Shown here piece by piece: positions 3,337 through 61,567 of a stretch of 64,000 nt of DNA (position 1 is the stretch's first letter; each line of letters starts with the position of its first letter). The DNA comes from Heptranchias perlo. Its lineage: Eukaryota. The notes beneath the pieces are model-generated. The model was not told the DNA's origin, searched no databases, and was given only the letters and a program-made list of their open reading frames with translations. The position numbers and the translations under genes were made by a program. The DNA is taken from contig NC_090370.1 of NCBI RefSeq assembly GCF_035084215.1, positions 7,440,001-7,504,000 of the forward strand. Direction: 5' to 3'.

Positions 3337-3337
3337 A

Positions 3338-11117: not shown

Positions 11118-11340
11118 TCCATTTATAATAATGATGTCCACCGGAATTGGTGGGCTATCAAACAGCTCCTTCACATGGTCACTTGGAGCCGACCAGCTCT
11201 ACACACAGCTGATGGTCTGAAGGCAGGAGTCTGCTTCCAAGATCCACACATTTTTGCTGACGCCAAGTTGGCCTGTGGCAGTGAAAGCAATAACCAGGTG
11301 TTGCTGCCCGGCAAAGGGACAGGTTGGAACCCATGGGAGA

Positions 11341-11475: not shown

Positions 11476-11506
11476 CCGACTCTCCGCTCACTCAAACAAC
11501 AGCATC

Positions 11507-17500: not shown

Positions 17501-17935
17501 GTTCTGGAATTCCCTCCCTAAACCTATCCGCCTCTCCACCTCCTTTAAGACGCTCCTTAAAACCTACCTTTTTGAGCAAACTTTGGGTGTCCTGTCCTAA
17601 TTTCTCCTTATGCGGCTCGGTGTCAAATTTTGTTTGATGATCACTCCTTGCCTTGGGCTGTTTTACTACATTAAAGGCGCTATATAATTGCAAGTTGTTG
17701 TACTTGTACTTTTAATTGATTTTAAGGGTGTTTTTCCCCCTTTACAGGTAATTTTCAGGATTTTAGTTCAATGAGTGGTGGAATAACTGGATATGTCCAA
17801 AGCAGCGGGCATGGCATGGAAACCTCTAATGTTTCAGGAGGCAAATCTGGTTTCAGTAGTGGCGGAGGTGTCAGCAAAACCTTGATTGTGAAATCAGTGG
17901 AGCATACCAGTGGTGGATATACAAGTACATCTTGA
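11507..17935 (+). CDS. Type II cytoskeletal keratin (K8-like), copy 1, 518 aa, tail A
   Basis: join(11507..11947,12099..12307,13329..13389,13480..13575,13696..13860,13970..14095,14515..14735,15378..15427,17748..17935) = 1557 nt, open, all GT-AG. Internal exon sizes 209/61/96/165/126/221 match type II keratins. Motifs: [66 protein letters not shown]. Ser/Gly/GYGG-rich head. Confidence 0.93.
12522..12901. repeat. Intron-2 G-rich minisatellite (45-bp and 28-bp units), copy 1, 380 bp
   Basis: Unit GGGGAGTACACGATGGGGCGGAGAAGTACCTGAGTGTGGTGATCT plus short unit TGGAGCAGACAAGTACCTGACTGTGCGA; bounded by TGGAGGTCT at both ends. Confidence 0.95.
15000..15250 (+). mobile_element. Probable tRNA-derived SINE remnant in intron 7 (all copies)
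   Basis: A-box-like TGGCTCAGTGGG, then gggcagcagttggggtg...cctgttcctgattgctatgcagtga, which resembles from memory an old elasmobranch SINE body. Boundaries approximate. Confidence 0.4.
15777..17700. mobile_element. Intron-8 L2 (+) with nested family-B LINE (-), unit 2
   Basis: Duplicate of 196-3631 without the CR1 insertion. Confidence 0.8.
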
Positions 17936-24670: not shown

Positions 24671-25572
24671 TTATGTTGGAGGTGAAATGACTTTTCTTCT
24701 GTTGCGGGTCCGCCAGCTGTAACCCCGCCCAAGCAAACAGTCTCAGAAACAGCCGCAGGGTGTGACCGAGATGGGAGCTCAGACAATCCCTACATCACGA
24801 TTTAACCCTTTATGTGCCGCAACATGCAGCTACCAACAGGGAAAAAGTGACTTAAAGATCGACAAATCCATAAACTAATTTCTTTACGCACAGAAAGCAA
24901 GCGAGCTATTCATACACCAATAAAAGATCACCACCCACACTTAAAGCCGCGGAATGTCCCTCACTAATGGACTATCCGATCTACTATCTCCATTTATAAT
25001 GATGTGGAGATGCCGGTGATGGACTGGGGTTGACAATTGTAAACAATTTTACAACACCAAGTTATAGTCCAACGATTTTTATTTGAAATCTACAAGCTTT
25101 CGGAGGCTTCCTCCTTCAGGTAAATGTCTGAAGGCTTGTAGATTTCAAATAAAATCGTTGGACTATAACTTGGTGTTGTAAAATCCATTTATAATGATGA
25201 TGTCCACCGGAATTGGTGGGCTATCAAACAGCTCCTTCACATGGTCACTTGGAGCCGACCAGCTCTACACACAGCTGATGGTCTGAAGGCAGGAGTCTGC
25301 TTCCAAGATCCACACATTTTTGCTGACGCCAAGTTGGCCTGTGGCAGTGAAAGCAATAACCAGGTGTTGCTGCCCGGCAAAGGGACAGGTTGGAACCCAT
25401 GGGAGAGGGGGGCGGGTGGCCCCTCCTCTATATCGGCTGCTCCATTCCCATCCCTGTTATCTGACACCCTGACCAAGCCCAGATCCACACAGCCCATAAA
25501 AGCAGCAAAAACCGCCCTCACCTCCACCAGTCCATCAGTTTCCGACTCTCCGCTCACTCAAACAACAGCATC

Positions 25573-31500: not shown

Positions 31501-32345
31501 CCAATCAAGTGGGCTGCTTTGTCCTGGATGGCATCGAGCTTCTTGAGTGTTGTTGGAGCTGCACTCATCCAGGCAAGTGGAGAGTATTCCATCACACTCC
31601 TGACTTGTGCCTTGTAAATGGGGGAAAGGCTTTGGGGAGTCAGGAGCTGAGTCACTTGCCACAGAATAACCAGCCTCTGACCTGCTCTTGTAGCCACAGT
31701 ATTTATGTGGCTGGTCCAGTTAAGTTTCTGGTCAATGGTGACCTCCAAGATGTTGATGGTAGGGGTTTCGGCGATGGTAATGCCATTGAATGTAAAGGGG
31801 GCATTTGAATGTCAAAGCTCTGAGATCGCTGCACTCCTCCAATTCTGGCCTCTTACGCATCCCCGATTTCCATCGCCAGTGGCGGCCGCGGTCAGCTGCC
31901 TAGGCCCTAAGTTCTGGAATTCCCTCCCTAAACCTATCCGCCTCTCCACCTCCTTTAAGACGCTCCTTAAAACCTACCCTTTTGAGCAAACTTTGGGTGT
32001 CCTGTCCTAATTTCTCCTTATGCGGCTCGGTGTCAAATTTTGTTTGATGATCACTCCTTGCCTTGGGCTGTTTTACTACATTAAAGGCGCTATATAATTG
32101 CAAGTTGTTGTACTTGTACTTTTAATTGATTTTAAGGGTGTTTTTCCCCCTTTACAGGTAATTTTCAGGATTTTAGTTCAATGAGTGGTGGAATAACTGG
32201 ATATGTCCAAAGCAGCGGGCATGGCATGGAAACCTCTAATGTTTCAGGAGGCAAATCTGGTTTCAGTAGTGGCGGAGGTGTCAGCAAAACCTTGATTGTG
32301 AAATCAGTGGAGCATACCAGTGGTGGATATACAAGTACATCTTGA
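25573..32345 (+). CDS. Type II cytoskeletal keratin (K8-like), copy 2, 518 aa, tail A
   Basis: join(25573..26013,26165..26373,27738..27798,27889..27984,28105..28269,28379..28504,28924..29144,29788..29837,32158..32345). Same exon sizes and splice sites as copy 1; no stop or frameshift seen. Confidence 0.93.
26588..27310. repeat. Intron-2 minisatellite, copy 2, 723 bp
   Basis: Same 45/28-bp units; +343 bp relative to copy 1 (7x45+28). Confidence 0.95.
30187..32110. mobile_element. Intron-8 L2 (+) with nested family-B LINE (-), unit 3
   Basis: Duplicate of 15777-17700. Confidence 0.8.
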
Positions 32346-39087: not shown

Positions 39088-39988
39088 TTATGTTGGAGGT
39101 GAAATGACTTTTCTGCTGTTGCGGGTCCGCCAGCTGTAACCCCGCCCAAGCAAACAGTCTCAGAAACAGCCGCAGGGTGTGACCGAGATGGGAGCTCAGA
39201 CAATCCCTACATCACGATTTAACCCTTTATGTGCCGCAACATGCAGCTACCAACAGGGAAAAAGTGACTTAAAGATCGACAAATCCATAAACTAATTTCT
39301 TTACGCACAGAAAGCAAGCGAGCTATTCATACACCAATAAAAGATCACCACCCACACTTAAAGCCGCGGAATGTCCCTCACTAATGGACTATCCGATCTA
39401 CTATCTCCATTTATAATGATGTGGAGATGCCGGTGATGGACTGGGGTTGACAATTGTAAACAATTTTACAACACCAAGTTATAGTCCAACGATTTTTATT
39501 TGAAATCTACAAGCTTTCGGAGGCTTCCTCCTTCAGGTAAATGTCTGAAGGCTTGTAGATTTCAAATAAAATCGTTGGACTATAACTTGGTGTTGTAAAA
39601 TCCATTTATAATAATGATGTCCACCGGAATTGATGGGCTATCAAACAGCTCCTTCACATGGTCACTTGGAGCCGACCAGCTCTACACACAGCTGATGGTC
39701 TGAAGGCAGGAGTCTGCTTCCAAGATCCACACATTTTTGCTGACGCCAAGTTGGCCTGTGGCAGTGAAAGCAATAACCAGGTGTTGCTGCCCGGCAAAGG
39801 GACAGGTTGGAACCCATGGGAGAGGGGGCGGGTGGCCCCTCCTCTATATCGGCTGCTCCATTCCCATCCCTGTTATCTGACACCCTGACCAAGCCCAGAT
39901 CCACACAGCCCATAAAAGCAGCAAAAACCGCCCTCACCTCCACCAGTCCATCAGTTTCCGACTCTCCGCTCACTCAAACAACAGCATC

Positions 39989-42900
39989 ATGCTCAAAACC
40001 AAATCCTACACTTCCTCGTCCTTGAGCGGCAGCGGTAACTGGGGCGGCAGCGGGAGATCCTCCGTCTCCAGTATGAGGTCCTTCGGGTCGCGCACCAGCG
40101 GCACGAATGTGGTTATACCCCGCGCACTAAGTATGATCCAAAGTCGCAGTCGGACAAGCTCAGCCGGTAGCCGCATGGCTGGTTACGGTGGTTACGGTGG
40201 TGGTTACGGTGGTTACGGTGGTGGTTACGGTGGTGGTTTCGGTGCCGGTGGCCGGTCCAGCAGCGCCGGTTTCAGTAGCGGTCTGTCCTCGGGGATGATC
40301 CAGGCATCCACTGCCCTTGACCTGAACACCCCTCTCCCCAAAAATGACACCAGCCTGCAGCAGATCCGGGCGGTTGAGAAGGGCCAGCTCGAGGGGCTCA
40401 ACAACAGATTTGCCGATTTCATTGACAAGGTAATTTGAAGAGCTCTCTCCAGTCGGTCGTGTTTGTAACCGAGTGTTTTGTGTCTTTGCCCAATGACCTG
40501 GTGTGACTCTGGGAATGGCTCTTCTCACTTGCCTCCCAGTTCAGTTCAAAGCTAACTGTACATTCATTTTACACCGTCAGGTTCGTAGGCTGGAAGAGAG
40601 AAATAAGCAACTGGATGTCAATCTGAAGTTACTGAACGAACAGGGAACTTACAAATCCAACATCGACAAAATGTTCCAGGCTTACATTGAGAACCTCAAA
40701 AGGCAACTGGGAACTCTAGAGCAGGAGAAGCAAAAGTTCGAGTCTGACCTTCTGCAAATGCAAAGTCTAGTTGAGGACTTTAAGGGCAAGTAAGTGTGGT
40801 GCTGGTGATATTTTTATCCCATTTGTTCTGATCCTGTATCGTTTCTCACGCTAAACAAAGTCCCAGGTTCACACCTTGACAAGTTGAGCAGGACCGATCA
40901 AAATAATCCGCAGGATACTCAATTATAGTAAACTGAAGGAGTGAAAATAACTGTCTGTACTAGTTACAGTTACATTAGTCTGTGCTGAGTCTGCCAGTGT
41001 TACTGGAGGTCTGGGGAGTACACGATGGGGCAGGAAAGTACCTGAGTGTGGTGCTCTGGGGAGTATACAATGGGGCAGACAAGTACCTGACTGTGCGATG
41101 GGGCGGAGAAGTACCTGAGTGTGGAGATCTGGGGAGTACACGATGGGGCAGGAAAGTACCTGAGTGTGGTGCTCTGGGGAGTATACAATGGGGCAGACAA
41201 GTACCTGAGTGTGGTGATCTGGGGAGTATACAATGGAGCAGGAAAGTACCTGACTGTGCGATGGGGCGGAGAAGTACCTGAGTGTGGAGATCTGGGGAGT
41301 ACACGATGGGGCAGGAAAGTACCTGAGTGTGGTGCTCTGGGGAGTATACAATGGAGCAGACAAGTACCTGACTGTGCGATGGGGCGGAGAAGTACCTGAG
41401 TGTGGAGATCTGGGGAGTACACGATGGGGCAGGAAAGTACCTGAGTGTGGTGCTCTGGGGAGTATACAATGGGGCAGGAAAGTGCCTGAGTGTGCGATGG
41501 GGCGGAGAAGTACCTGAGTGTGGAGATCTGGGGAGTACACGATGGGGCAGGAAAGTGCCTGAGTGTGCGATGGGGCGGAGAAGTACCTGAGTGTGGAGAT
41601 CTGGGGAGTACACGATGGGGCGGAGAAGTACCTGAGTGTGGTGATCTGGGGAGTACACGATGGGGCGGAGAAGTACCTGAGTGTGGAGATCTGGGGAGTA
41701 CACGATGGGGCGGAGAAGTACCTGAGTGTGGAGGTCTCGGGTGTTGCCTGTTGACTGTGAGCTGTGGTAAGGGCGGAGTCTCCCAGAGCTTTGCTGAGGT
41801 CAGTGACATAGATGAGTTGATTTTGGTAACGGAGGGGTTGGTGGGTTTGGTAAACTGGGGGTCTAGTCTGAGCAATCCATTCCTTTTAAGCACCAGCAGG
41901 ACTTCTGCTTCTAAGAGCAAAGGTTGAACATATTTGGGACGGTGTGTATTTTGTGGAGGGAAATGTATGAAGAATAGTGCATCCGTGGATGAATAGTTGA
42001 TATTTCAGGAGTGAGGAAATCGTGGCTCGGTGACGGGGAGCATGGACAGTATTTACTCAGTGTAAGGGGTTCAGATCAACAACCCTGAATCGGTTTACCA
42101 TGGAATCGGGGCAGAAAGATTTATCTCCATGGAATTACCAGTAAAATAATCTGTTTGATTCCAGATACGAAGATGAAATTAACAAGCGCACAGAAATGGA
42201 AAATGAGTTTGTCCTGGTGAAGAAGGTGAGCATTATTGTATATCTGTCTGCAGGGCCATTGCAAACGGATCCCTTGGCAGAGCTTTTCAAAGTACTGTGT
42301 CCCTCTCCTCTTTAGGATGTCGATGACTCCTACATGAACAAGGTAGAGCTGGAAGCTAAACTGGAAAGTCTCACCGATGAAATCGACTTCCTCAGAACAA
42401 TCTTTGAAGAGGTAAAAATGTGTCACGATCCAAAAGTTGGCCTTTTGCTATTTAATCCAATCCAGACTGATCCAATCCAGCTCGAATGCTTCCAATCTCG
42501 TTTCAATCTTTCTTTCCCCACCGACCTTTAGGAAATCCGTGAGCTGCAGGCACAGATTCAGAACACTGCTGTCAGCGTGGAAGTGGACACCAGCCGCAAT
42601 CTGAATGTGGACGAGATCGTTTCTCAAGTCAAACTTCAGTACGAATCACTTGCAAGAAACAGCCGTGCAGAAGCTGACCAATGGAAAGCGACCAAGGTGA
42701 GCTGTTTCAAACCCCGATCCCCATGTAACACGTGTATTGATAGGTCCGCACCCGGTGGTGAATTGAGAAACCTTTCACTGACCAGTTGCCAATGTTTCAT
42801 TGCAGATGCAGGAACTGTCCTTGTCATCTGGACAATGTAGTGATGACCTCCGCGGGCTGAAAGCACAGATTACTGAGCTGACCAACAAAATCCGTATTCT

Positions 42901-45900
42901 CAATGGTGATATCGACAATCTTAAGCAGCAGGTAGGTAAAGAACTGAAAGCAAACAGGATATTGGTACCAATTGAATAACTGTTGTAAATCCCTCTCTCT
43001 CTCTGCGCCCCCCACACCCCTCATCTCCACACACACAAACACACACACAAATACATCACCCTCCCTCCCTCCCAAAATGGGCAAGAGACGGTTGAAATAT
43101 CAGCTCAATCTGGTATATTTCTGTCACACTTGGTCTCTCAGTAATGATTACATTTGGACCTCTCGAAGGAAACATTGTGATGTGAATCCAATCCCAATCA
43201 GCATGCAATCCTCACCGCACGGCTGTCCCCATTTCATTGACATGGGAGAGAAGCAGAGGGTTCGTCTGCTTTCTGGATGACTCGTTTTGAGCGCTGCTCT
43301 GATACTCGAAATGCCGATGAAACTGACCATTAATATTTGTGCCACTCAGCGGATCAAACTGGAGGCTGCAATCGGAGAAGCTGAGGAGCGCGGTGAGATG
43401 TCTCTCAAAGACGCGAGGATTAGGATTGCTGATCTGGAAGCTGCCATCACCAAAGCAAAACAAGAGATGGTCAACCAAGTCCGCGAATACCAGGAGCTGA
43501 TGAATGTCAAGCTGGCTCTGGATATTGAAATTACCACCTACAGGAAACTACTGGAGGGAGAGGAGTCCAGGTAGGACATGGGGCAGTTACAAATTCCAGC
43601 CATCACACTGAGTACAGATCAGCGTTTCATATACTGACAGATTACAATCTGTACTTGCATTTTATTTGATCTCTATTAATGGGATGAAGGAATGGCAGGG
43701 TAGTCTACAATCACTAACTTTGGTTTAAAGGCTGGTTAGTATCTAACCAGACACTAACATCACAGTCATCCCAGAATGAACACCTGGACGGTGATTAGTT
43801 CTTCCTTTTATAGAGCTGGACCAGTAAAGCTCTCCTGATGGCTCAGTGGGTAAAGGCATTGTGGAACTGACCAGATGGTCCACCAGGGCAGCAGTTGGGG
43901 TGTACAGTTGTGCTCTGTGCCCCGAGCAAGGGAGAGTAAAAGCAGCCAAGAATCCTGTTCCTGATTGCTATGCAGTGAGTTCTGCGGGAAGGTATTTTTG
44001 TTCCTTCCCCATGGTCAAATAGTCTGCTGGCACTTGCTGAGTGTGCTGACACATGAGGAATGGACACTTTGGGTGAGGGGCTGGAGGGTGACTGTGCCCG
44101 GCAGAGGTCAATGTTGCTGGGAGGGGGAGAAGATTGGTAAACTGAAGGATAATATGTTTGTGAATATACTGCAAATACCTGTTGTAATGTGAATGTGTTT
44201 CCCTTATTAACAGGATAGATTCTGGGATACAAACCATCAGCATCCACCAAATACAAGGGCAGGGTAAGAGAACTAATAATTCATAGTTGGGATAAATGGG
44301 GAAAACTGGAAATCTGAAACAAAAATGGAAAATTCTGGAAATACATAGTTAACCGCATGAAAAGTGAAAAGGCAGGTTCTCATTTCAAGTATAGAGCCTT
44401 GGGCACAGTGCCTGTGTTCTGATGATTGGTCTGCAGTGCCCCCCGAATACTTCAGAGGCTGACGGACCTGCTGTGTATTTCCAGCACTTTCTGTTCTCAT
44501 TTTAATAATTCATAATTGTTATCAATGTCGCTGTGTTTAATGATGAGATTAACAGCTTTTTAATGTCAGGGCAAGAAGCAATTACTTCTAATAAAACTGA
44601 ACTTCCCTTCCTGGCCCCCATGCTAGCTGATATTATTAATGGTTCCCTCTCCTCTGGTACTGTCCCCCTCCATTTCATATCAGCTATCATCACCCTCCTC
44701 CTCAAAAAACCCACCCTTGACCCTCTGTCCTTGCAAACTACCGCCCCATCTCTAACCTCCCTTTCCTCACCAAAGTCCTTGAACGTGCTGTCGCCTGCAA
44801 AATCTGTGCCCATCTTTCCCGCAACTCCATGTTTGGACCTCTTCCATCAGATTTCTGCCCCTGCCACAGTACTGAAACGGCCCTAATCAAAGTCACAAAT
44901 GACATCCTACGTGATTTATCATGGTAAATTCCTCCTCCTTCTTGACCTGTCTTCAGCCTTTGACACAGTTGACCACACCATCCTCCTCCAACACCTCTTC
45001 TCCTTTGGTTAGCTGAATGGGACTGCCCTCTCCTGGTTCCATTCCTATCCGTCCAGTCATGGCCAGAGAATTTCCTGCACCATTAGCTCTGGAGTCTCCC
45101 AAGGATCTATCCTTGGACCCCTCCTATTTCTATCTACCTGCTGCTCCTCAGCGACATCATCCGAAAACGCAACGTCAGATTCCACATGTACACTGATGAC
45201 ACCCTCCTCCACCTCATGCCTTTTTTATCTCTAGACTCCACTATTCCAATGCTCTCTTGGCCGGCCTCCCGCCTTCCACCCTCAATAAACTTCAGCTCAT
45301 CCAATACTCTGCTGCACATATCCTAACTCGCATCAAGTCACGTTCACCCATCACCCCTGTGCTCGATAACTTACGTTGACTCCTGGTTTGGCAACAACTC
45401 GAATATAAATTTATCATCCTTGTGTTCAAATCAATCAATGGCATCGCCCTCCCTATCTCTGTAACCTCCTGCAGCATTACAATTTTTAAAAATTCATTCA
45501 TGGGATGTGGGCGTCGCTGGCAAGGCCAGCATTTATTGCCCATCCCTAATTGCCCTTGAGAAGGTGGTGGTGAGCCGCCTTCTTGAACCGCTGCAGTCCG
45601 TGTGGTGAAGGTACTCCCACAGTGCTGTGAGGGAGAGAGTTCCAGGATTTTGACCCAGCGACGATGAAGGAACAGTGATATATTTCCAAGTCAGGATGGT
45701 GTGTGACTTGGAGGGGAACATGCAGGTGGTGTTGTTCCCATGCGCCTGCTGCCCTTGTCCTTCTCGATGATAGAGGTTGCGGGTTTGGGAGGTACTGTTG
45801 AAGAAGCCTTGGCAAGCTGCTGCAGTGCATCTTGTAGATGGTACACACTGCAGCCGTGTTGCGCCGGTGGTGAAGGGAGTGAATGTTTAGGGTGGTGGAT

Positions 45901-46751
45901 GGGGTGCCAATCAAGTGGGCTGCTTTGTCCTGGATGGCGTCGAGCTTCTTGAGTGTTGTTGGAGCTGCACTCATCCAGGCAAGTGGAGAGTATTCCATCA
46001 CACTCCTGACTTGTGCCTTGTAAATGGGGGAAAGGCTTTGGGGAGTCAGGAGCTGAGTCACTTGCCACAGAATAACCAGCCTCTGACCTGCTCTTGTAGC
46101 CACAGTATTTATGTGGCTGGTCCAGTTAAGTTTCTGGTCAATGGTGACCTCCAAGATGTTGATGGTAGGGGTTTCGGCGATGGTAATGCCATTGAATGTA
46201 AAGGGGGCATTTGAATGTCAAAGCTCTGAGATCGCTGCACTCCTCCAATTCTGGCCTCTTACGCATCCCCGATTTCCATCGCCAGTGGCGGCCGCGGTCA
46301 GCTGCCTAGGCCCTAAGTTCTGGAATTCCCTCCCTAAACCTATCCGCCTCTCCACCTCCTTTAAGACGCTCCTTAAAACCTACCTTTTTGAGCAAACTTT
46401 GGGTGTCCTGTCCTAATTTCTCCTTATGCGGCTCGGTGTCAAATTTTGTTTGATGATCACTCCTTGCCTTGGGCTGTTTTACTACATTAAAGGCGCTATA
46501 TAATTGCAAGTTGTTGTACTTGTACTTTTAATTGATTTTAAGGGTGTTTTTCCCCCTTTACAGGTAATTTTCAGGATTTTAGTTCAATGAGTGGTGGAAT
46601 AACTGGATATGTCCAAAGCAGCGGGCATGGCATGGAAACCTCTAATGTTTCAGGAGGCAAATCTGGTTTCAGTAGTGGCGGAGGTGTCAGCAAAACCTTG
46701 ATTGTGAAATCAGTGGAGCATACCAGTGGTGGATATACAAGTACATCTTGA
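39989..46751 (+). CDS. Type II cytoskeletal keratin (K8-like), copy 3, 518 aa, tail A
   Basis: join(39989..40429,40581..40789,42165..42225,42316..42411,42532..42696,42806..42931,43350..43570,44214..44263,46564..46751). Intact; exon 8 has Q->H (CAG->CAC at 44247). Confidence 0.93.
41004..41737. repeat. Intron-2 minisatellite, copy 3, 734 bp
   Basis: Same units; +354 bp relative to copy 1 (6x45+3x28, numerically 3x118). Confidence 0.95.
44593..46516. mobile_element. Intron-8 L2 (+) with nested family-B LINE (-), unit 4
   Basis: Duplicate of 15777-17700. Confidence 0.8.
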
Positions 46752-47547
46752 ATCAATGAGGGATAAACTCGTGCCAGCAATGTCTCTTACTGGCCCACAT
46801 TTTCAGAGGCTGTATTTCCTCTACCTGCTGATTTTAATGCAGTGGTTAACAGGTTTGGATTAACTTCATGTCTGCTATTTGGAACACCATCATTAACCTG
46901 TTCATTTTAAATAGTTAAACGACATGAAATTAACATCAATAGCTTAACCAGTGCACTAAAAACATCGCACAGAGAAAATTAAACCTAGTAAAGGCCTATA
47001 GTTTGGGTTTGTGGGAAAACCGGTCAAGAAACTCACACTTTATTTGTTGGCCCCTTTAAAATGGGAAATAAACCAAAGTTTTCGGTGCTGATGTCTGTTT
47101 CATGATTCTCTATCATTTTGTACTGGGGATTTATCTTTTATGACACTCCTGTTATACTGAATAAACTTCTAATCTACAAACCTGGACTGCTTTTTGCTTA
47201 AGCACAATATTAAGTTAGTGAAAAGAACAAGTTTCATACAGAGTGAATTTAAGAATTTTTTAATATTTAGCATTAAGGTTGATGCAATGTTATGAAATGT
47301 AGAAAGATTATTTTGTGTATTCCATATAAAAAACACACCAGACCATTACTGCAATCAATCAGAGCATGGATCGAGATACAGTAAAGTCTAATAGCAATCT
47401 GAGCTCCACCTTCTCCTCCACCAATGATGCTACTTTTTCCATCATCTGAGAATACCAACACTGGACATGAGATTTTTTTGAATTTCCAGAACATTCTCCT
47501 TTCCCAATGGTCACAATCCAGCTTGTGTATCAAATAAGCAGCCCACC

Positions 47548-50500
47548 TCATAGAATCAGAGAATGATACGGCACAGAAGGAGGCCATTCAGCCCATTGTG
47601 CCTGTGCCGGCTCTTTAAAGAGCTATCCAATTAGTCCCACTTCTCTGCTCTTTCTCCGCAGCCCTGTAATTTTTTCCCCTTCAAGTATTTATCCAAGTCC
47701 CTTTTGAAAGTTATTATTGAATCTGCTTCCACCACCCTTTCAGGCAGTGCATTCCAGATCATAACAACTCGCGGTGTAAAAAAACATGTCCTCATGTCGC
47801 CTCTGCTTCTTTTGCCAGTCACCTTAAATCTGTGTCCTCTGGTTACCAACCCTTCTGCCACTGGAAACAGTTTCTCCTTATTTGCTCTATCAAAACCATT
47901 CATGATTTTGAACACCTCTATCAAATATCTATGGGCTAGTGTAAGATGCATTAGGTTAGAACACTGGCCCTGGGGCCTGTCTTCAAATCCAGTCCAGACT
48001 GATCGAGGAAACTATCCTTTATCTACTAGCTGTAAGTGTCCTACATAAAATGAGTTTGTGCCGTCTCTACCCTGTTCCAAATAAGTATAGGCCGACAGTA
48101 CAAAACGGTCCCTAATCATAGAATGGTTACAGCACAGAAGGAGGCCATTCGGCCCATCGAGCCCGTGCCAGTTCTTTGTAAGAACAATCCAGTTAGTCCC
48201 CTTCTCTTACCCCATAGCCCTGTAAACTTTTTCCCTTCAAGTATTTATCCAATTCCTTTGCAGCAATAAACACTAAGTAAGCAGCCTCACTCAGTGAGGC
48301 CACAGGATAGCTTGTGTGAAATATCATACCGATGCAGTAATGCCATAGGGACTGAGGCACATTCTTGGGGCAGAGAAAAGGAGCTCTACTCTGTATCAAG
48401 CCATGCTTCCAAAACTGACCTGGGCATGTTTGATATCGACTGGGTAACCAAAATGGAAAGTGTTACATTCCCCAGCACTAACATTTGTTTAGATTAACTT
48501 ACAGTATAACTCAGGGAATCCATAAGGAATGGGCCACACAATGGCAAATGGCATTTAACTTAGATAAATGTCATGTCATGCATGTTGGTATGACCAACAC
48601 AGAATACATTTATCATTTACAGGGAACAATACTCAAAGAGATAAAATGATCGAGGTGTTATTGTGCACAGATCACTGAAGGTTCATGACCAATGTAGAGA
48701 AGTTGTAGCTAAAGTTAACAGGGTGTTGGGTTTTATTAATAGAACCATTCAGTATAAATCAAAGGACACCATTCTGTCATTATACAGGTCACTTGTACTG
48801 TGCCCAGTTTTGGTCCCCCCACATGGTGGGTGATGAATGGTCTTGGAAAAGGTTCAGAGGAGAGCTACAAGAATGGTTCCTATCTTCAACAATCATAGTC
48901 ACTCATTGGGGTTAAAGAGCTGGGTCAATTTATGTGAAAAGAGCGTAGGCTTAAAGGTGACCTGATAGAGGTCTATAAAATAATTAAAGGCTGGATAGCG
49001 TCCCTATCAATAGATTATTCCAATTAAACAGATTGGGGAGGACCAGGGGACAGGAATTTAAACTATATAAAAGTGGGAATAGACTGATAGATTGGATGTT
49101 AGGCGGTTCTTCTTTTCCCAGAGAGTAGTGAGTCTCTGGAACACATTGCTGGCTGGTGTGGTGTGTGCTGACTCTCTGCTTTCAATGGGAAGCTGGACAG
49201 GTTCTTGACTGGGGCAGAGGTCGAATCGTATGGAAGGTAAATGGCTTGATAGATAACACTTGGTCCATGTAATTTCCTGGTTTGGTTTAGATTGCCTGAG
49301 GGGGTCAGAGAAGAATTTTGCAGAGCAGTTTTTCCCTTATTAGCCCTGGGTTTTCACCTCTCCCAGAGGATTACATGCCTGCAGAGGGGGTGGGAAGTTG
49401 TGGGCTTGGGGGGGTTGGTGTGGGGAGGGTTTTTAGGAAGTGTCTGGTCATGATGCTCCAGCCATTATGAGTGTGGGACAGGCTTGATGGACCAGCTGGT
49501 CATTTCCAGCCTGTTATTTTCATATGTAAGGAATCTTACAACACCAGGTTATAGTCCAACTGTTTTATTTGAAAATCACAAGCTTTCGGAGGCTTTCTCC
49601 TTCGTCAGGTGAGTGTGGGATTGCATGGAAGCCTCCGAAAACTTGTGATTTTCAAATAAAACAGTTGGACTATAACCTGGTGTTGTAAGATTCCTTACAT
49701 TTGTCAACCCCAGTCCATCACCGGATCTCCACATCATGTTATTTTCATATGTTTGTATGCAGGGTAAGACGTCATAATCTCTGATGTTGGAATCACACAA
49801 AGAGTAATCAATAACTGGAATGGTCTGTTTGGTTAGGAAATGGAATCAAAAACTTTGTCCTTGTTCAAGAGGCAATTGTATGGTCTGGAGGGTCATAAAC
49901 TTCTACGGAAGGTAGATTTAGATGGGCTCAATGGCCCCCCTGCAATGTTCCAGAACTAGCTGTGCCTCTAGCCAAACTCTTCCAGTACAGCTACAACACT
50001 GGCATCTACCCGACAATGCGGAAAATTGCCCAGGTATGTCCTATCCACAAAAAGCAGGACAATTCCAATCCGGGCAATTACCGCCCCATCCGTCCACTCT
50101 CAATCATCAGCAAAGTGATGGAAGGTGTCGACAACAGTGCTATCAAGCGGCACTTATTCACCAATAACCTGCTCACTGATATTCAGTTTGGGTTCCACCT
50201 GGACCACTCAGCTCCAGACCTCATTACAGCCTTGGTCCAAACATGGACAAAAGATCTGAATTACAGAGGTGAGCTGAGAGTGACTGCCCTTGACATCAAG
50301 GCAGCATTTGACTGAGTGTGGCACCAAGGAGCCCGAGTAAAATTGAAGTAAAAGGGAATCAGGGGGAAAACTCTCCAGTGGCTGGAGTCATACCGAGCAC
50401 AAAGGAAGATTTTCGTGGTTGTTGGAGGCCAATCATCTCAGCCTCAGGACATTGCTGCAGGAGTTCCTCAGGGCAGTGACCAAGGCCCAACCATCTTCAG

Positions 50501-53500
50501 TTGCTTCATCAATGACCTTCCCTCCATCATTAGGTCAGAAATGGGGATGCAGCAAGACCTGGACAACATCCAGGCTTGGGCCGATAAGTGGCAAGTAACA
50601 TTTGGGCCAGACAAGCGGCAGGGATGGGCAACAAATGCTGGCCTTGCCAGCGACACCCACATCCCATGAACGAGAAAAACAAACCTACATTTGTGATTTT
50701 AGTGATACCAGTTTTTCAGGGACTATTTTCACCCTTTGTGAGATGCACTATGTGATCCCAGATCAGTCTGGGCATTTCAAATTTCCTGTAAGAATAAACT
50801 AAGAAAACCACTGAGAGTGAAATAGGAAAAATCAACATGAAAATACCCGTTAAAAATCCACTAACACAACAAATTGGTCCACAAGCTGCATTTGATTCCA
50901 TCGGCCCAAATACCCAAGATCACAAACAACCAGATTGCATGGAATAGGAATATTCCTCCTCGGAATTGGCCACGTATATATGGATCCTCTTTTCCCTTTA
51001 AATCATTCTTATTTGAACTATCTGTTCCCCACACTTAAGCAATCTTAAAGTTACCACTGGGTGAACAGGACGCACCAGGGATCCTGGTGTGCTTCCACAC
51101 TATACCAGCTGGTGGAGCTCTTGGGACATAGCAGACTGGGCATTTTATTGCTCTGGTGTTCGGCCAAGCGGTCGATTCGTTCAATCTGCTGTCACACTCT
51201 GCTGCTATCTATTCTGTGAACCTGAAAGAGCAAAAGCGAGTTTAATCCTCAGCTGATTGTGGCGAGGGAACTCTGCTACAAACGACAACTTGCAGTTATA
51301 TTGCGCTTTTAACGTGGTAAAACATCCCAAGGCGCTTCACAGGAGGGCAGTCAGATAAAAATTGACACCGAGCCACAGAAGGAGACATTAGGACAGGTGA
51401 AGAGGTAGGTTTTAAGGAGGGTTTTAAAAGAGGAGAGAGAAGTAGAGAGGTTTAGGGTGGGAATTCCAGAGCTTAGGGCCTAGGCAGCTGAAGATATCAC
51501 CGCCAATGATGGGGCGAAGGAAGTGGGGAGATGTACAAGAGGCCAGAATTGGAGGAGCGCAGAGATCTCAAAGGGTTGTAGGGCTGGAGGAGTTTACAGT
51601 GATAAGGAGGGGCGAGGCCATGGAGGGATTTGAATACGAGGATGAGAGCTTTAAAATCGAGGTGTTCAGGGACTGGGAGCCAATGTCGGTCAGCGGGTAC
51701 AGGGGTGATGGGCGAACGGGGTTTGGTACAAGTTATGATACGGGCAGCAGAGTTTTGGATGAGCTCAACTTTATGGAGAGTGGAAGATGTGAGGCCGGCC
51801 AGGAAAGCATTGGGTTTTAGCAGCAGATGAGGCAGGGGCGGAGACAGGTGATAGCACAGAGGTGCAAGTAGGTGCTCTTTGTGATGGAGAGGATACGGGG
51901 TCGGAAGCTCACCTCAGGACCAATTATGACGCCCGGGTTGTGAACAGAAACATCAACTCTCACACGAGACTGACCATTCAATTGTGACAGAGGAGTGAAA
52001 TCCCACCAACAATGGAACCACGATTTCAATCACACCTGACGGTTCTCCTCTATTCCCCAGTGCTCAAGGAGTATTTTAACCCTTTCTTCCCAGATGAGTC
52101 AATGCTTCCTGGCCTAATAAACATTTCTCCCACTTTGGACTGTTCTAAAATAAGCCCGTTGCAATATTCTTTCCTGATTGACCAGAGACTGTTTATGATT
52201 AACTCTTACACTTGAATTTCCGACTGGTCTGGAAAAGCTTTCGAAGATTGTTTTGATCCCAGACTGGGAAGGTTTCTTGGTTTTGCCTCTTTTGACAGTA
52301 AAATGGTAGGTACAGCAAAGGAGGAGGCCATTCAGCCCATCGTGCCTGTGCCGGCTGGTTGAAAGAGCTATCCAATTAGTCCCATTCCCCTGCTCTTTCT
52401 CCATAGCCCTGTACATTTTTCCCTTCAAGTATTTATCCAATTCCCATTTGAAAGTTACAATTGAATCTGCTTCCACCACCGTTTCAGGGAGTGAATTCCA
52501 GATCATTACAACTCCTGCATAAAACATTGTTTCCTCGTGTCGCCCTTGGCTCTTTTGCGGATCACATTAAAAATGTGTCCTCTGGTCACCGATCCCTCTG
52601 CCACTGGAAATAGTTTCTCCTTATTTACAAAGGAAGATGGTAGTGGTTGTTGGAGGCCAATGATCTGAGCCCCAGGACGTTGCTGCAGGAGTTCCTCAGG
52701 GTAGTGTCCTCGGCCCAACCATCTTCAGCTGCTTCATCAATGACCTTCCCTCCATCATAAGGTCAGAAATGGGGATGTTCGCTGATGATTGCACAGTGTT
52801 CAGTTCCGTTCGCAACCCCTCAGATAATGAAGCAGTCGGTGCCTGCATGCAGCATGACCTGGACAACATCCAGGCTTGGGCTCATAAGTGGCAAGTAACA
52901 TTCGCACCAGACAAGTGGCAGGCAATGACCATCTCAAACAAGAGTCGAACCACCTCCCCTTGACATTCAACGGCATTACCATCGCCAAACCCCCCACCAT
53001 CAACACCCTGGGGGTCACCATTGACCAGAAACTTAACTGGACCAGCCACATAAATACTGTGGCTACAAGAGCAGGTCAGAGGCTGGGTATTCTGCAGTGA
53101 GTATCTCACCTCCTGACTCCCCAAAGCCTTTCCACCATCTACATGGCACAAGTCAGGAGTGTGATGGAATACTCTCCACTTGTCTGGATGAGTGCAGCTC
53201 CAACAACACTCAAGAAGCTTGACACCATCCAGGACAAAGCAGCCCGCTTGATTGGCAGCCTATCCACCACCCTAAACATTCACTCCCTCCACCATCGTCG
53301 CTGGGTCAAAATCCAGGAACTCCCTTCCCAACAGCACTGTGGGAGAACCTTCACCACATGGACTGCAGCGGTTCAAGAAGGCGGCTCACCACCACCTTCT
53401 CAAGGGCAATTGGGGATGGCCAATAAATGCTGGACTTGCCAGCGACGCCCACATCCCATGAATGAATAAAAAAACTCTATCAATCCGTTCATGATTTTGA

Positions 53501-53506
53501 ACACCA
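47548..53506. mobile_element. Intergenic stack of CR1, L2, family-B and Penelope fragments, unit 4
   Basis: Duplicate of 4663-10603; Penelope palindrome at 49524-49736. Confidence 0.75.
49576..49612 (-). ncRNA. Minimal hammerhead ribozyme motif, unit 4
   Basis: Identical to 6673-6709 on the minus strand; the opposite arm has one G->A change. Confidence 0.7.
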
Positions 53507-54408
53507 TTATGTTGGAGGTGAAATGACTTTTCTTCTGCAGCGGGTCCGCCAGCTGTAACCCCGCCCAAGCAAACAGTCTCAGAAACAGCCGCAGGGTGTG
53601 ACCGAGATGGGAGCTCAGACAATCCCTACATCACGATTTAACCCTTTATGTGCCGCAACATGCAGCTACCAACAGGGAAAAAGTGACTTAAAGATCGACA
53701 AATCCATAAACTAATTTCTTTACGCACAGAAAGCAAGCGAGCTATTCATACACCAATAAAAGATCACCACCCACACTTAAAGCCGCGGAATGTCCCTCAC
53801 TAATGGACTATCCGATCTACTATCTCCATTTATAATGATGTGGAGATGCCGGTGATGGACTGGGGTTGACAATTGTAAACAATTTTACAACACCAAGTTA
53901 TAGTCCAACGATTTTTATTTGAAATCTACAAGCTTTCGGAGGCTTCCTCCTTCAGGTAAATGTCTGAAGGCTTGTAGATTTCAAATAAAATCGTTGGACT
54001 ATAACTTGGTGTTGTAAAATCCATTTATAATAATGATGTCCACCGGAATTGGTGGGCAATCAAACAGTTCCTTCACATGGTCACTTGGAGCCGACCAGCT
54101 CTACACACAGCTGATGGTCTGAAGGCAGGAGTCTGCTTCCAAGATCCACACATTTGTGCTGACGCCAAGTTGGCCTGTGGCAGTGAAAGCAATAACCAGG
54201 TGTTGCTGCCCGGCAAAGGGACAGGTTGGAACCCATGGGAGAGGGGGGCGGGTGGCCCCTCCTCTATATCGGCTGCTCCATTCCCATCCCTGTTATCTGA
54301 CACCCTGACCAAGCCCAGATCCACACAGCCCATAAAAGCAGCAAAAACCGCCCTCACCTCCACCAGTCCATCAATTTCCGACTCTCCGCTCACTCAAACA
54401 ACAGCATC

Positions 54409-57400
54409 ATGCTCAAAACCAAATCCTACACTTCCTCGTCCTTGAGCGGCAGCGGTAACTGGGGCGGCAGCGGGAGATCCTCCGTCTCCAGTATGAGGTC
54501 CTTCGGGTCGCGCACCAGCGGCACGAATGTGGTTATACCCCGCGCACTAAGTATGATCCAAAGTCGCAGTCGGACAAGCTCAGCCGGTAGCCGCATGGCT
54601 GGTTACGGTGGTTACGGTGGTGGTTACGGTGGTTACGGTGGTGGTTACGGTGGTGGTTTCGGTGCCGGTGGCCGGTCCAGCAGCGCCGGTTTCAGTAGCG
54701 GTCTGTCCTCGGGGATGATCCAGGCATCCACTGCCCTTGACCTGAACACCCCTCTCCCCAAAAATGACACCAGCCTGCAGCAGATCCGGGCGGTTGAGAA
54801 GGGCCAGCTCGAGGGGCTCAACAACAGATTTGCCGATTTCATTGACAAGGTAATTTGAAGAGCTCTCTCCAGTCGGTCGTGTTTGTAACCGAGTGTTTTG
54901 TGTCTTTGCCCAATGACCTGGTGTGACTCTGGGAATGGCTCTTCTCACTTGCCTCCCAGTTCAGTTCAAAGCTAACTGTACATTCATTTTACACCGTCAG
55001 GTTCGTAGGCTGGAAGAGAGAAATAAGCAACTGGATGTCAATCTGAAGTTACTGAACGAACAGGGAACTTACAAATCCAACATCGACAAAATGTTCCAGG
55101 ATTACATTGAGAACCTCAAAAGGCAACTGGGAACTCTAGAGCAGGAGAAGCAAAAGTTCGAGTCTGACCTTCTGCAAATGCAAAGTCTAGTTGAGGACTT
55201 TAAGGGCAAGTAAGTGTGGTGCTGCTGATATTTTTATCCCATTTGTTCTGATCCTGTATCGTTTCTCAGGCGAAACAAAGTCCCAGGTTATCACCTTGAC
55301 AAGTTGAGCAGGACCGATCAAAATAATCCGCAGGATACTCAATTATAGTAAACTGAAGGAGTGAAAATAACTGTCTGTACTAGTTACAGTTACATTAGTC
55401 TGTGCTGAGTCTGCCAGTGTTACTGGAGGTCTGGGGAGTACACGATGGGGCAGGAAAGTACCTGAGTATGGTGCTCTGGGGAGTATACAATGGAGCAGAC
55501 AAGTACCTGACTGTGCGATGGGGCAGGAAAGTACCTGAGTATGGTGCTCTGGGGAGCATACAATGGGGCAGGAAAGTACCTGACTGTGCCATGGGGCGGA
55601 GAAGTACCTGAGTGTGGAGATCTGGGGAGTATACAATGGGGCAGGAAAGTACCTGAGTGTGGTGCTCTGGGGAGCACACGATGGAGCAGACAAGTACCTG
55701 AGTGTGCAATGGGGCGGAGAAGTACCTGAGTGTGGTCTTCCAGGGAGTACACGATGGGGCAGGAAAGTGCCTGAGTGTGGAGATCTGGGGAGTACACGAT
55801 GGGGCGGAGAAGTACCTGAGTGTGGAGATCTGGGGAGCACACGATGGGGCGGAGAAGTACCTGAGTGTGGTGATCTGGGGAGCACACGATGGGGCGGAGA
55901 AGTACCTGAGTGTGGTGATCTGGGGAGCACACCATGGGGCGGAGAAGTACCTGAGTGTGGTGATCTGGGGAGCACACCATGGGGCGGAGAAGTACCTGAG
56001 TGTGGTGATCTGGGGAGTACACCATGGGGCAGAGAAGTACCTGAGTGTGGAGATCTGGGGAGTACACGATGGGGCGGAGAAGTACCTGAGTGTGGTGATC
56101 TGGGGAGTACACGATGGGGCGGAGAAGTACCTGAGTGTGGTGATCTGGGGAGTACACCATGGGGCGGAGAAGTACCTGAGTGTGGTGATCTGAGGAGTAC
56201 ACGATGGGGCGGAGAAGTACCTGAGTGTGGTGATCTGGGGAGTACACCATGGGGCGGAGAAGTACCTGAGTGTGGAGATCTGGGGAGTACACGATGGGGC
56301 GGAGAAGTACCTGAGTGTGGTGATCTGGGGAGTACACGATGGGGCGGAGAAGTACCTGAGTGTGGAGGTCTCGGGTGTTGCCTGTTGACTGTGAGCTGTG
56401 GTGAGGGCGGAGTCTCCCAGAGCTTTGCTGAGGTCAGTGACATAGATGAGTTGATTTTGGTAACGGAGGGGTTGGTGGGTTTGGTAAACTGGGGGTCTGG
56501 TCTGAGCAATCCATTCCTTTTAAGCACCAGCAGGACTTCTGCTTCTAAGAGCAAAGGTTGAACATATTTGGGACGGTGTGTATTTTGTGGAGGGAAATGT
56601 ATGAAGAATAGTGCATCCGTGGATGAATAGTTGATATTTCAGGAGTGAGGAAATCGTGGCTCGGTGACGGGGAGCATGGACAGTATTTACTCAGTGTAAG
56701 GGGTTCAGATCAACAACCCTGAATCGGTTTACCATGGAATCGGGGCAGAAAGATTTATCTCCATGGAATTACCAGTAAAATAATCTGTTTGATTCCAGAT
56801 ACGAAGATGAAATTAACAAGCGCACAGAAATGGAAAATGAGTTTGTCCTGGTGAAGAAGGTGAGCATTATTGTATATCTGTCTGCAGGGCCATTGCAAAC
56901 GGATCCCTTGGCAGAGCTTTTCAAAGTACTGTGTCCCTCTCCTCTTTAGGATGTCGATGACTCCTACATGAACAAGGTAGAGCTGGAAGCTAAACTGGAA
57001 AGTCTCACCGATGAAATCGACTTCCTCAGAACAATCTTTGAAGAGGTAAAAATGTGTCACGATCCAAAAGTTGGCCTTTTGCTATTTAATCCAATCCAGA
57101 CTGATCCAATCCAGCTCGAATGCTTCCAATCTCGTTTCAATCTTTCTTTCCCCACCGACCTTTAGGAAATCCGTGAGCTGCAGGCACAGATTCAGAACAC
57201 TGCTGTCAGCGTGGAAGTGGACACCAGCCGCAATCTGAATGTGGACGAGATCGTTTCTCAAGTCAAACTTCAGTACGAATCACTTGCAAGAAACAGCCGT
57301 GCAGAAGCTGACCAATGGAAAGCGACCAAGGTGAGCTGTTTCAAACCCCGATCCCCATGTAACACGTGTATTGATAGGTCCGCACCCGGTGGTGAATTGA

Positions 57401-59566
57401 GAAACCTTTCACTGACCAGTTGCCAATGTTTCATTGCAGATGCAGGAACTGTCCTTGTCATCTGGACAATGTAGTGATGACCTCCGCGGGCTGAAAGCAC
57501 AGATTACTGAGCTGACCAACAAAATCCGTATTCTCAATGGTGATATCGACAATCTTAAGCAGCAGGTAGGTAAAGAACTGAAAGCAAACAGGATATTGGT
57601 ACCAATTGAATAACTGTTGTAAATCCCTCTCTCTCTCTGCGCCCCCCACACCCCCTCATCTCCACACACACAAACACACACACAAATACATCACCCTCCC
57701 TCCCTCCCAAAATGGGCAAGAGACGGTTGAAATATCAGCTCAATCTGGTATATTTCTGTCACACTTGGTCTCTCAGTAATGATTACATTTGGACCTCTCG
57801 AAGGAAACATTGTGATGTGAATCCAATCCCAATCAGCATGCAATCCTCACCGCACGGCTGTCCCCATTTCATTGACATGGGAGAGAAGCAGAGGGTTCGT
57901 CTGCTTTCTGGATGACTCGTTTTGAGCGCTGCTCTGATACTCGAAATGCCGATGAAACTGACCATTAATATTTGTGCCACTCAGCGTATCAAACTGGAGG
58001 CTGCAATCGGAGAAGCTGAGGAGCGCGGTGAGATGTCTCTCAAAGACGCGAGGATTAGGATTGCTGATCTGGAAGCTGCCATCACCAAAGCAAAACAAGA
58101 GATGGTCAACCAAGTCCGCGAATACCAGGAGCTGATGAATGTCAAGCTGGCTCTGGATATTGAAATTACCACCTACAGGAAACTACTGGAGGGAGAGGAG
58201 TCCAGGTAGGACATGGGGCAGTTACAAATTCCAGCCATCACACTGAGTACAGATCAGCGTTTCATATACTGACAGATTACAATCTGTACTTGCATTTTAT
58301 TTGATCTCTATTAATGGGATGAAGGAATGGCAGGGTAGTCTACAATCACTAACTTTGGTTTAAAGGCTGGTTAGTATCTAACCAGACACTAACATCACAG
58401 TCATCCCAGAATGAACACCTGGACGGTGATTAGTTCTTCCTTTTATAGAGCTGGACCAGTAAAGCTCTCCTGATGGCTCAGTGGGTAAAGGCATTGTGGA
58501 ACTGACCAGATGGTCCACCAGGGCAGCAGTTGGGGTGTACAGTTGTGCTCTGTGCCCCGAGCAAGGGAGGGTAAAAGCAGCCAAGAATCCTGTTCCTGAT
58601 TGCTATGCAGTGAGTTCTGCGGGAAGGTATTTTTGTTCCTTCCCCATGGTCAAATAGTCTGCTGGCACTTGCTGAGTGTGCTGACACATGAGGAATGGAC
58701 AATTTGGGTGAGGGGCTGGAGGGTGACTGTGCCCGGCAGAGGTCAATGTTGCTGGGAGGGGGAGAAGATTGGTAAACTGGAGGATAATATGTTTGTGAAT
58801 ATACTGCAAATACCTGTTGTAATGTGAATGTGTTTCCCTTATTAACAGGATAGATTCTGGGATACAAACCATCAGCATCCAGCAAATACAAGGGCAGGGT
58901 AAGAGAACTAATAATTCATAGTTGGGATAAATGGGGAAAACTGGAAATCTGAAACAAAAATGGAAAATTCTGGAAATACATAGTTAACCGCATGAAAAGT
59001 GAAAAGGCAGGTTCTCATTTCAAGTATAGAGCCTTGGGCACAGTGCCTGTGTTCTGATGATTGGTCTGCAGTGCCCCCCGAACCTCAACCTCTCTTTGTT
59101 CTGTTTTCAGAGGCTGACGGACCTGCTGTGTATTTCCAGCACTTTCTGTTCTCATTTTAATAATTCATAATTGTTATCAATGTCGCTGTGTTTAATGATG
59201 AGATTAACAGCTTTTTAATGTCAGGGCAAGAAGCAATTACTTCTAATGCCTGTCCTTTTGATAAGCACTGTGTCGATTGAGTAAGATTTTCATTAGCACT
59301 GTATGAAGAGAATTATTTTTCGTAAAAGAATTGTAGAACCCAGATTTGAAGAAGATTTTTTTTCCTTTACAGGTAATTTGCATCAGTTTGGTTTCAGTGA
59401 TGGATCGTCTGGATATAGTGGTGTGGTTAATCATGGTTTGGAAACTTCTTTGATCAATCGAGGAAGCGTTTCATCCACCTCCAAAACCACTCGAAATGTA
59501 ATTGTGCAGGAAACTGAGCTGGTGAATGGAGTTCCAGTGCTTACAACAAGAAGAACTTTGAACTAA
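54409..59566 (+). CDS. Type II cytoskeletal keratin (K8-like), copy 4, 520 aa, with a different terminal exon (tail B)
   Basis: join(54409..54849,55001..55209,56799..56859,56950..57045,57166..57330,57440..57565,57985..58205,58849..58898,59373..59566). Exon 9 follows ttttttttcctttacag| and reads (G)[69 protein letters not shown] at 60156-60161. Confidence 0.9.
55424..56371. repeat. Intron-2 minisatellite, copy 4, 948 bp
   Basis: Same units; +568 bp relative to copy 1 (12x45+28). Confidence 0.95.
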
Positions 59567-60155
59567 TGTGAACAGAGTCCTATCAATTATTTGTCTCATG
59601 CCTCTATTGCCTTTTTAGGAGTGTTCATCTGCCATCTTAGTCTCGGAGTTCCATTCTGATATTTCTGGCTTTGCATATTTGGGGTAACTTCTTAAAATAC
59701 TGACACTGGTGAATCATCTATTCACTGTCCTTTAAGTCTTGAGGGCTTTGTTGGAGAAGGACTTTTGCCAATCTATTGATATTCATAAAAGTTACTGATC
59801 AGTCTGCCTGACATATACTGCACATCAATTAAATCTACTTGTAACTGTGCCATGTGACACCAGTGGCATTGCATCAGATTAATCGTTGGTTAACAGACAC
59901 GTTTTGGATTAACTTGTGTGAATGACTCAGTAACTCCTTGACCTTCTGTGAGGTTGGTCTGAAAAAGTGGACATCTGCCACTTGAAAGGCCTACATTTTG
60001 AGGTTTGTGGGGAAAGCTGCTTAAGAAACTCACGCTTTATTTGTTGGTTCCTTTAAAATAAGAAATACACCAAAGTTTTCTGCACGGAACTGTTTCATGA
60101 TTCTGTATTTCCTTGTACCAAAGATTGTACTTTCATTATATTCTATGAAAGACTG

Positions 60156-60161
60156 AATAAA
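60156..60161 (+). promoter_or_regulatory. Putative polyadenylation signal of the tail-B keratin
   Basis: actgAATAAAc at the position homologous to the tail-A signal, followed by U/GU-rich downstream sequence. Confidence 0.65.
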
Positions 60162-61567
60162 CATCTTTTCTGCAATTCCAAATTGATGTTTTTTTTGTTC
60201 TGCAAACCTTTCTCTCTGTCTTGTTGCTTCTCCTCCAGCTTCATTTTTCCTCATTATGCTTTGGGTGTCGCACTTTTGTACTTAGTAATTGCTGTGTCAC
60301 ATTTGCACCCGATTGTCCCAAATTTCATATTCATAGAAGAGCACAGCTGAACAGGCAGGGAATATCCCAAGTAAAAACTTGTATAAGATGATGTACAAAA
60401 TCAACGAGGAATCGGTATACCACACTCAATATAAAAACATTTTTGCATGATTTTTGGCTGCCATTTTAGGTTGGCACTTAGTGAGTACCTAAAAAGATAA
60501 GATTTCAAGTCTACATACTTTTTTTTGTTCCAATGTTTTCATGAATGTTGTTCAGAGGCTCGTCTCTCTGTTAGAAACCTGACAGTAAAGGTTTTATCAC
60601 TGCCAGATTACAACTCCTAGAAAAACTACCTATCTGTCTCTTCTTCAGACAAGACAAGGGGGGCAGGGTTCAAACAGGAAGTCATGGCTTGCCCTGATCG
60701 ACTATTCTTGGTATCAATCATATTTTTTAAATTCTGGGGCTTCATTGTCTTTAAAGAAATCCCAGCCAGGACATTTCTAGCTATCTATTAAAGGTTTTAC
60801 ACATTTCCTGTTTTATAATATTTAGTTTTGTACCATCACAATTTGTTGATTAGCAAAACAGCAGCAAATCAGAACTGAGAAGGTACAAAACACAGAAATC
60901 AAAAGTAAGCAAAAAGACTCCAAAATTACTACAAGAAGCGAATAAACTGGAGGTTGAATTCTCAAACAAGGCACGTTGCACACTTAAGATATTATGAGCT
61001 GCTCAATTGTTACAGCACAATTAGATAACAGCAATGATTAGCAGTACTAGTGGTTTGTTTTTTTGAAATGTTCACAAAATGTTTCTTTTGTTAACATTTC
61101 AAAAAAACAAATTGAAGATTCTTTGTGGCTTTCTTTTTCTCAGTGGAAAAATTCAAGAGGTTTCAGTTTGTTTTTCCAAATGATTTAAACCTGGCTGGAA
61201 GATTTAATTTGGGTTATTGGGTTCCTCCCGATTGGTTGCTACCTATGTCAAATCACAATCACTGTCACACTTGCCTCCAGCCACATACAACTGCAGCTAT
61301 CCTGCCATCCACAAACCAGGGCAGCAGCAGAGACTATAATTGACTGCAGTGTCCCTGAAATATGAAAGGGGTATGAAACAGTTGGTGCGCGTGTGCAGCT
61401 GTCACCCCCCTCTCCCTCGCATCAAATAGCCCACTGACACTCATTGCCTAGACTGAAGTGTGCAAAGATTCTGGAGAAAACAAAACCCAAAATAATGACT
61501 ATCTTCAAGAGAGAGAATTGCAATGTAAAACAATACTCGCATACTCGAGTATAAATGATCAATTGAA

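Follow-up and report, generated by a model that had tools for sequence, protein, structure and literature searches.

An array of type II keratin genes in Heptranchias perlo with a shared rod and two probably ancient tails

The opsin array is built of one red gene and several green genes. The red and green opsins of primates are tandem paralogs, products of a duplication 30–40 million years (My) ago, that have been homogenized by gene conversion while one internal exon, of known function, is kept apart (PMC3924837). The mammalian gene pairs BMP8A/B, DDX19A/B and TUBG1/2 are described cases of ‘mosaic concerted evolution’, in which one part of a gene is more alike inside one species than across different ones, lastingly and with boundaries that are conserved, while the remainder diverges; these have two copies each, an age of >100 My, and converted parts that do not match protein domains (PMC2720389). 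Shark globins and Lefty pairs also group as paralogs by lineage, with conversion as one offered cause, and in these turnover and conversion are hard to tell apart (PMC13023373, PMC12344233). Here we describe an array of five type II keratin genes in the shark Heptranchias perlo. The ‘window’, the whole 64,000-nt stretch analyzed (contig NC_090370.1, positions 7440001–7504000), was examined with 200 kb of flank on either side; coordinates refer to the window unless the contig is named. The five genes, copies 0 to 4, carry nearly the same head and rod (exons 1–8) and end in one of two tails (exon 9), A or B. We consider it very probable that the A/B pair predates the shark–ray split and that, lineage by lineage, gene conversion and unequal crossing-over have homogenized exons 1–8. 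The array resembles the opsins in that one exon is kept apart, but what diverges here is the last exon with its untranslated region (UTR). It differs from the mosaic pairs in having 1–6 A proteins to one B, an inferred age of at least ~270 My, and a boundary that falls in the intron 5' of the tail exon and fits a protein domain.

The array reads, from 5' to 3', as a unique flank, a shared block, four repeats of the unit ‘tail A plus spacer plus shared block’, and finally tail B. The repeat measures ~14.4 kb within the window, and by self-BLAST its identity to the last copy ends at 59247. The shared block begins ~0.7–0.9 kb 5' of the ATG and runs through exons 1–8 into intron 8. With a minisatellite excluded, the five blocks differ by 14–28 positions per 4,539 columns, a divergence of 0.3–0.6% among copies, introns included. 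The four spacers diverge by 0.11–0.59% over 8,887 columns, and the tail A exon with its UTR (46564–47180) shows no difference among the four A copies. All five genes are intact in the gene models, with GT–AG introns, open frames of 515–520 aa, inner exons of 209, 61, 96, 165, 126 and 221 nt, and the nine-exon layout typical of type II keratin genes. The array sequence contains no N. A genome search found exon 2 five times, the tail A UTR four times and the tail B UTR once, with every match inside the array; this puts the A:B ratio in this assembly at 4:1, in keeping with the ‘at least 4:1’ of the original prediction, which had been made from the window's letters.

Copy 4, or gene B (54409..59566, forward strand), encodes a protein of 520 aa (P0121, XP_067832767.1) in exons at 54409–54849, 55001–55209, 56799–56859, 56950–57045, 57166–57330, 57440–57565, 57985–58205, 58849–58898 and 59373–59566, and its shared block spans 53520..59247. 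Since exon 8 ends at 58898, the common part of intron 8 is 349 nt, and the alignments of copies 1–3 with copy 4 each end at 59247. The abrupt divergence noted at 59247/59248, after ~350 nt of intron 8, is thus confirmed. For 58700–60200 no RNA data set was listed, which says nothing about expression; four DNA runs that contain 0.96–0.99 of its sequence words stem from a single sample, perhaps that of the assembly itself, and do not count as independent. The 141 nt 5' of the junction hold no mismatch in any of four comparisons with copy 4; 19 of the next 100 nt match. Beyond the junction lie a B-specific end of intron 8 (59248..59372), which agrees with the A acceptor region at 22 of its last 31 nt, the single-copy tail B exon (59373..59566), and the gene B 3' UTR (59567..60161), with AATAAA at 60156. 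The gene models place tail A in copies 0–3 and tail B in copy 4, as had been proposed from the differing last exons. The further proposal that the two tails are related also holds: the exons have identical acceptor contexts and phase, the UTRs share 76% identity across 193 nt (in the distal part of that of gene B), and local alignment of the tail regions scores 425, where the highest of 30 shuffles reached 304.

A recent origin by exon shuffling was the headline of the original prediction: exons 1–8 of gene B, the parent, would have been joined by duplication to the tail of an upstream gene A, yielding new chimeras. The repeat unit, correctly anticipated as tail A, spacer and exons 1–8, suits this idea, as do the sharp junction and the internal copies, which are chimeric in their flanks only, their upstream DNA being of copy-4 type and their tail of A type. 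The idea calls for a most 5' gene in which diverged exons 1–8 are joined to tail A, but no such gene is present. Copy 0 begins 4,018 nt 5' of the window (exons 1–8 at contig 7435982–7439866, shared block from 7435288), and its exons 1–8 are the same as those of copies 1–4, so the headline fails the test set for it in advance. A flank of its own is found only 5' of the shared block; aligned there with the spacer, it displays no homology except dispersed repeats. The next keratin gene upstream is a distant, K8-like one with a tail of its own. A new rod–tail combination, which shuffling needs, is likewise not in evidence, both combinations being found with copy 0 and in 13 other elasmobranchs. 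We therefore hold exon shuffling to be extremely unlikely. What survives of the earlier interpretation is its repeat unit and the alternative that it mentioned, an old A/B pair with homogenized exons 1–8, which the evidence favors.

Relatives were gathered by a search with XP_067832768.1 (P0001) plus cluster look-ups, and cover 17 named elasmobranchs including H. perlo. In 14 of these (13 besides H. perlo), sharks and rays among them, tails of both classes sit on rods that are nearly identical: the sharks Heptranchias, Pristiophorus, Heterodontus, Stegostoma, Cetorhinus, Carcharodon, Chiloscyllium, Hemiscyllium and Scyliorhinus torazame, and also two Mobula, Rhinoraja, Pristis and Hemitrygon. 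All 14 have exactly one B protein, accompanied by 1–6 A proteins (2–6 distinct ones in 11 of the 14). Within each of the 14 species, A and B rods are 98.5–100% identical over the last 330 aa of exons 1–8; the tails are 22–41% identical. Between species, rods average 66%, and tails 35% (A–A), 41% (B–B) and 26% (A–B), with the higher score going to the tail of the same class in 313 of 364 comparisons. Heads behave like rods (89.8–100% within species, mean 43% between). In three close species pairs, 3, 5 and 31 rod sites (39 together) group by species and none by class, so homogenization postdates even these splits. Searches with the tails alone were insensitive: the tail A exon matched only P0001, named keratin type II cytoskeletal 8-like, the cluster of which contains the B form P0121, and with tail B none of 55 candidate proteins reached E 0.01, even though P0121 is in the collection.

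Trees were built with one A and one B protein per species (30 of the 68 proteins retained). No pair was available for Mustelus, Rhincodon, S. stellaris and two unnamed proteins, which were left out, and five Callorhinchus models that were truncated or frameshifted (P0138, P0141, P0142, P0144 and P0145) were dropped before any counts. Rods group by species and tails by class. The rod tree requires 14 changes between A and B and the tail tree two; the shuffled mean is ~10, and for tails none of 500 shuffles was as low. In the approximately unbiased (AU) test, a B clade is rejected for rods (p 0.003, from the 10 species whose pairs are not identical), and species pairs are rejected for tails in all five species tested (p from 0.022 to 2e-15). 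Within one segment, exons 1–8, likeness within species exceeds that between species, as in mosaic concerted evolution, and the tail segment appears to retain an old orthology from a duplication before speciation, without class monophyly being established. Homogenized introns and recombinant copies are observed in H. perlo, the one species covered by genomic sequence.

The recombination is visible among the five blocks. Thirteen sites are informative, and 35 of their 78 pairs cannot be fitted to one common tree. Copy 4 has minor alleles in common with copy 2 and others in common with copy 1; ~160 nt 5' of the junction, copies 4, 1 and 2 also agree in the state of a 20-nt indel. These patterns bear on a different history, one of episodic replacement, in which rods diverge for long periods and are then overwritten by rare events in one direction, or replaced by birth and death, each lineage having undergone this recently through chance or turnover, without lasting exchange. 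Copy 4 is indeed the richest in private variants (9 of the 21 singletons), and a possible target-site duplication at a long interspersed nuclear element (LINE), described below, would make the end of the block A-derived. Yet a recent overwrite would be required in every one of the 14 lineages, among them both partners of the three close pairs, and copy 4 itself takes part in the incompatible site patterns. Such replacement seems unlikely to us.

Lasting homogenization of an old pair can be pictured as follows. The ancestor would have been a tandem pair, A then B, with an exchangeable block, which gene conversion would hold alike. A crossover between misaligned blocks would gain or lose one unit of tail A, spacer and block; multiplication would not reach the first flank or the last tail, so that the number of A genes varies and B stays single. 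The expectation of n A to one B is matched in 14 of 14 species. The reciprocal product of such a crossover would carry no A tails, and among the 17 named elasmobranchs A was present in every species for which the models are genome-based, a hint of selection. Selection may keep both tails, B with a K8-like C-terminal motif and A without, and cells would then make one rod with two tails.

Several points weigh against this account. The tail alignment has 58 columns; the B clade is found in 12% of bootstrap trees and not rejected by the AU test (0.39), and class A needs three changes on the tail tree. Tails of carpet sharks in class A are very divergent, Mustelus and Rhincodon gave A forms only, and S. 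stellaris gave one B-like record, ‘epidermal keratin type II’ (CAA76715.1), with the same type of exon 8 and a B-like tail start. The A/B labels were set by eye. A motif near the tail end, E-x-x-[DN]-G, occurs in B of 14 of 15 species and in A of none of 15, a count that is partly circular because the labels leaned in part on this C-terminal motif; with classes assigned by singleton status alone, the count is 10 of 11. Retrieval by clusters of 90% identity favors B proteins with an A-like rod. Old homology 5' of the block was sought and not found, with a score of 493 against shuffles of up to 511. Nor does the block show a clear GC excess over neighboring keratins: GC at third codon positions (GC3) in the rod is 56.9% against 57.6% and 50.3% in the neighbors, and non-coding GC is 46.1% against 40.0–44.5%. 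GC-biased conversion had been considered on account of a rod/tail contrast in GC3 (59% versus 32%), which disappeared against the neighboring keratins.

Finally, the other species are known from predicted proteins alone, and this opens the way to an artefactual reading, according to which B tails elsewhere come from alternative last exons or from joins made in annotation, and assembly errors account for the copy numbers. The A forms of Cetorhinus do lie on two contigs. In H. perlo, however, B is a complete, separate gene, and the copies differ in substitutions, indels and minisatellite length; the NCBI names of the relatives' records bear no isoform label; and alternative exons would still imply two old tails on one rod. 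An artefact is accordingly very unlikely.

The edges of the shared block coincide with repeats. On the A side its 3' end abuts a broken, 5'-truncated LINE with nested repeats (44593..46517, forward strand), present in copies 0–3, whose dispersed copies align from 44600, 7 nt past the junction; three stop-free pieces of it match Pfam RVT_1 with E values of 0.0006–0.09, under the curated cut-off. On the other side, a pile of repeats (~52300–53500) stops just short of the block's 5' edge. Transposon insertions are a named barrier to gene conversion (PMC3924837), and in H. perlo they may fix where exchange stops. A target-site-like 10-mer flanks the LINE with 9 of 10 positions matching, as did 116 of 20,000 shuffles; this hints that the end of the shared block was originally native to gene A.

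NCBI records name the encoded proteins type II keratins of Heptranchias perlo, the best matches of the array protein are so named, and the gene B protein matches Pfam Filament over residues 130–440 with 326 bits (cut-off 40, E 3e-97). Judged by sequence, the array genes are type II keratin genes and not keratin 8 proper, because another type II gene faces the type-I-like gene and the array rods form an elasmobranch clade of their own (support 96/99). The facing genes, type-I-like on the reverse strand and type II on the forward, form a head-to-head pair at contig ~7396400–7419400, 20–44 kb 5' of the window; the type II member lies ~36 kb 5' of the start of copy 0 and has its own K8-type tail end. 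The arrangement is like that of chondrichthyan type II cluster 2, in which several type II genes lie beside a head-to-head I/II pair (bioRxiv 10.1101/2020.05.06.063123), and the pair fits the conserved krt18/krt8 pair of that cluster. A diverged type II gene with a long branch lies on the reverse strand at contig ~7521100–7529500, 21 kb 3' of gene B.

The elephant shark, Callorhinchus, extends the comparison. It has two tails on a rod 98.2–100% identical, one tail nearer A in 13 of 14 comparisons and the other nearer B in 12 of 14. Orthology of this chimaera pair with the elasmobranch A/B pair is suggested and no more, because the Callorhinchus rods join the array clade with support of 82/93, not starred, and the test rejects (p 0.027) their placement with the K8-like gene upstream. 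The shark–ray split is dated to ~270 My and that of the chimaeras to ~415 My (PMC13023373). A bolder claim, that the two-tail system was present in the last common ancestor of cartilaginous fishes (~415 My), is based on the two elephant shark tails on a rod 98–100% identical. It would add selection on rods and tails, unequal crossing-over that tunes the A:B dose, and rod homogenization that makes independent origins of fish epidermal keratins look more numerous in rod trees. With these additions it is tentative, and we think it more doubtful than probable.

The B motif E-x-x-[DN]-G is also present in 61 of 100 non-chondrichthyan proteins of the collection. A related turn in vimentin, RDG, has been proposed to fold back onto the rod (PMC9235546); by analogy, the B motif may be homologous to it and may act alike. 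The divergent carpet-shark A tail (P0133–P0137, P0019, P0021 and P0017) has a branch of 1.12 and has lost the usual end motif. Keratins of ray-finned fish (P0029, P0092, P0032, P0030 and P0076) include forms with a K8-type tail and forms with an RY-like end, the rods of which are 84–89% identical, and 96% in one pair; sturgeon K8 and primate K8 are 77% identical, and the ray-finned forms stand together in the rod tree. Older homogenization of rods in that lineage is a lead to follow.

The remaining features of the array, all on the forward strand where they are genes, are as follows. Copy 0 contributes to the window the 3' end of its shared block in intron 8 (1..195), a LINE remnant with nested repeats (196..3632), and its tail A exon (3679..3866), followed by AATAAA at 4182 and 4275. 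Within the remnant, at 1202–2713, lies a 1,512-nt insertion peculiar to copy 0, which also has a 9-nt deletion within the GGY repeat of exon 1 and lacks a 195-nt repeat that is found in copies 1–4 (near 53838 in copy 4). The shared block of copy 1 (10618..15776: ~0.9 kb of upstream DNA, exons 1–8 and the start of intron 8) belongs to a coding sequence at 11507–17935 with its tail A exon at 17748..17935. Copy 2 has its block at 24684..30186, coding sequence at 25573–32345 (protein P0122, XP_067832766.1) and tail A exon at 32158..32345; copy 3 has these at 39101..44592, 39989–46751 (protein P0001, XP_067832768.1) and 46564..46751. UTR A and the repeat-rich spacer of the fourth unit fill 46752..53519. 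The predicted proteins of copies 0 and 1 equal none of the cluster's three RefSeq proteins, and both frames are open. Intron 2 of gene B contains a minisatellite with a 45-nt unit (55424..56378) that could favor misalignment, and the length of this intron rises from copy 0 to copy 4 (993, 1021, 1364, 1375 and 1589 nt). Among the spacers of units 0–3 (196–53519), 17 of 19 informative sites unite units 1 and 2, which are 0.11% apart, against 0 and 3; the outer units thus have spacer alleles in common across the inner pair.

The mechanism proposed here is already known; in the literature covered, which did not extend to subscription journals such as those with the Schaffeld papers on shark keratins, we found no account of the keratin case. 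The study of cluster 2 concerns the elephant shark only, and the words ‘conversion’ and ‘concerted’ have no occurrence in its accessible text (bioRxiv 10.1101/2020.05.06.063123); the same is true of ‘shark’, ‘conversion’ and ‘concerted’ in that of a keratin family update (PMC8733776). Turnover and conversion are separable in the keratin array, as they hardly are in the globins and Lefty pairs, because the tail exon is unconverted and keeps the old orthology.

Concerted evolution across hundreds of My has been called very rare (PMC6053082). If our account is true, the keratin array would represent concerted evolution in 14 lineages over at least ~270 My, with its boundary at one exon and a testable copy rule of n to 1. 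Because the rod is identical, it would also let the function of keratin tails be tested in a natural setting. Trees based on the rod underlie the view that keratins originated independently in fish (PMC1896152), and the array carries a warning for these: rod-based keratin trees can mask an old orthology that is kept only by the tail exon.

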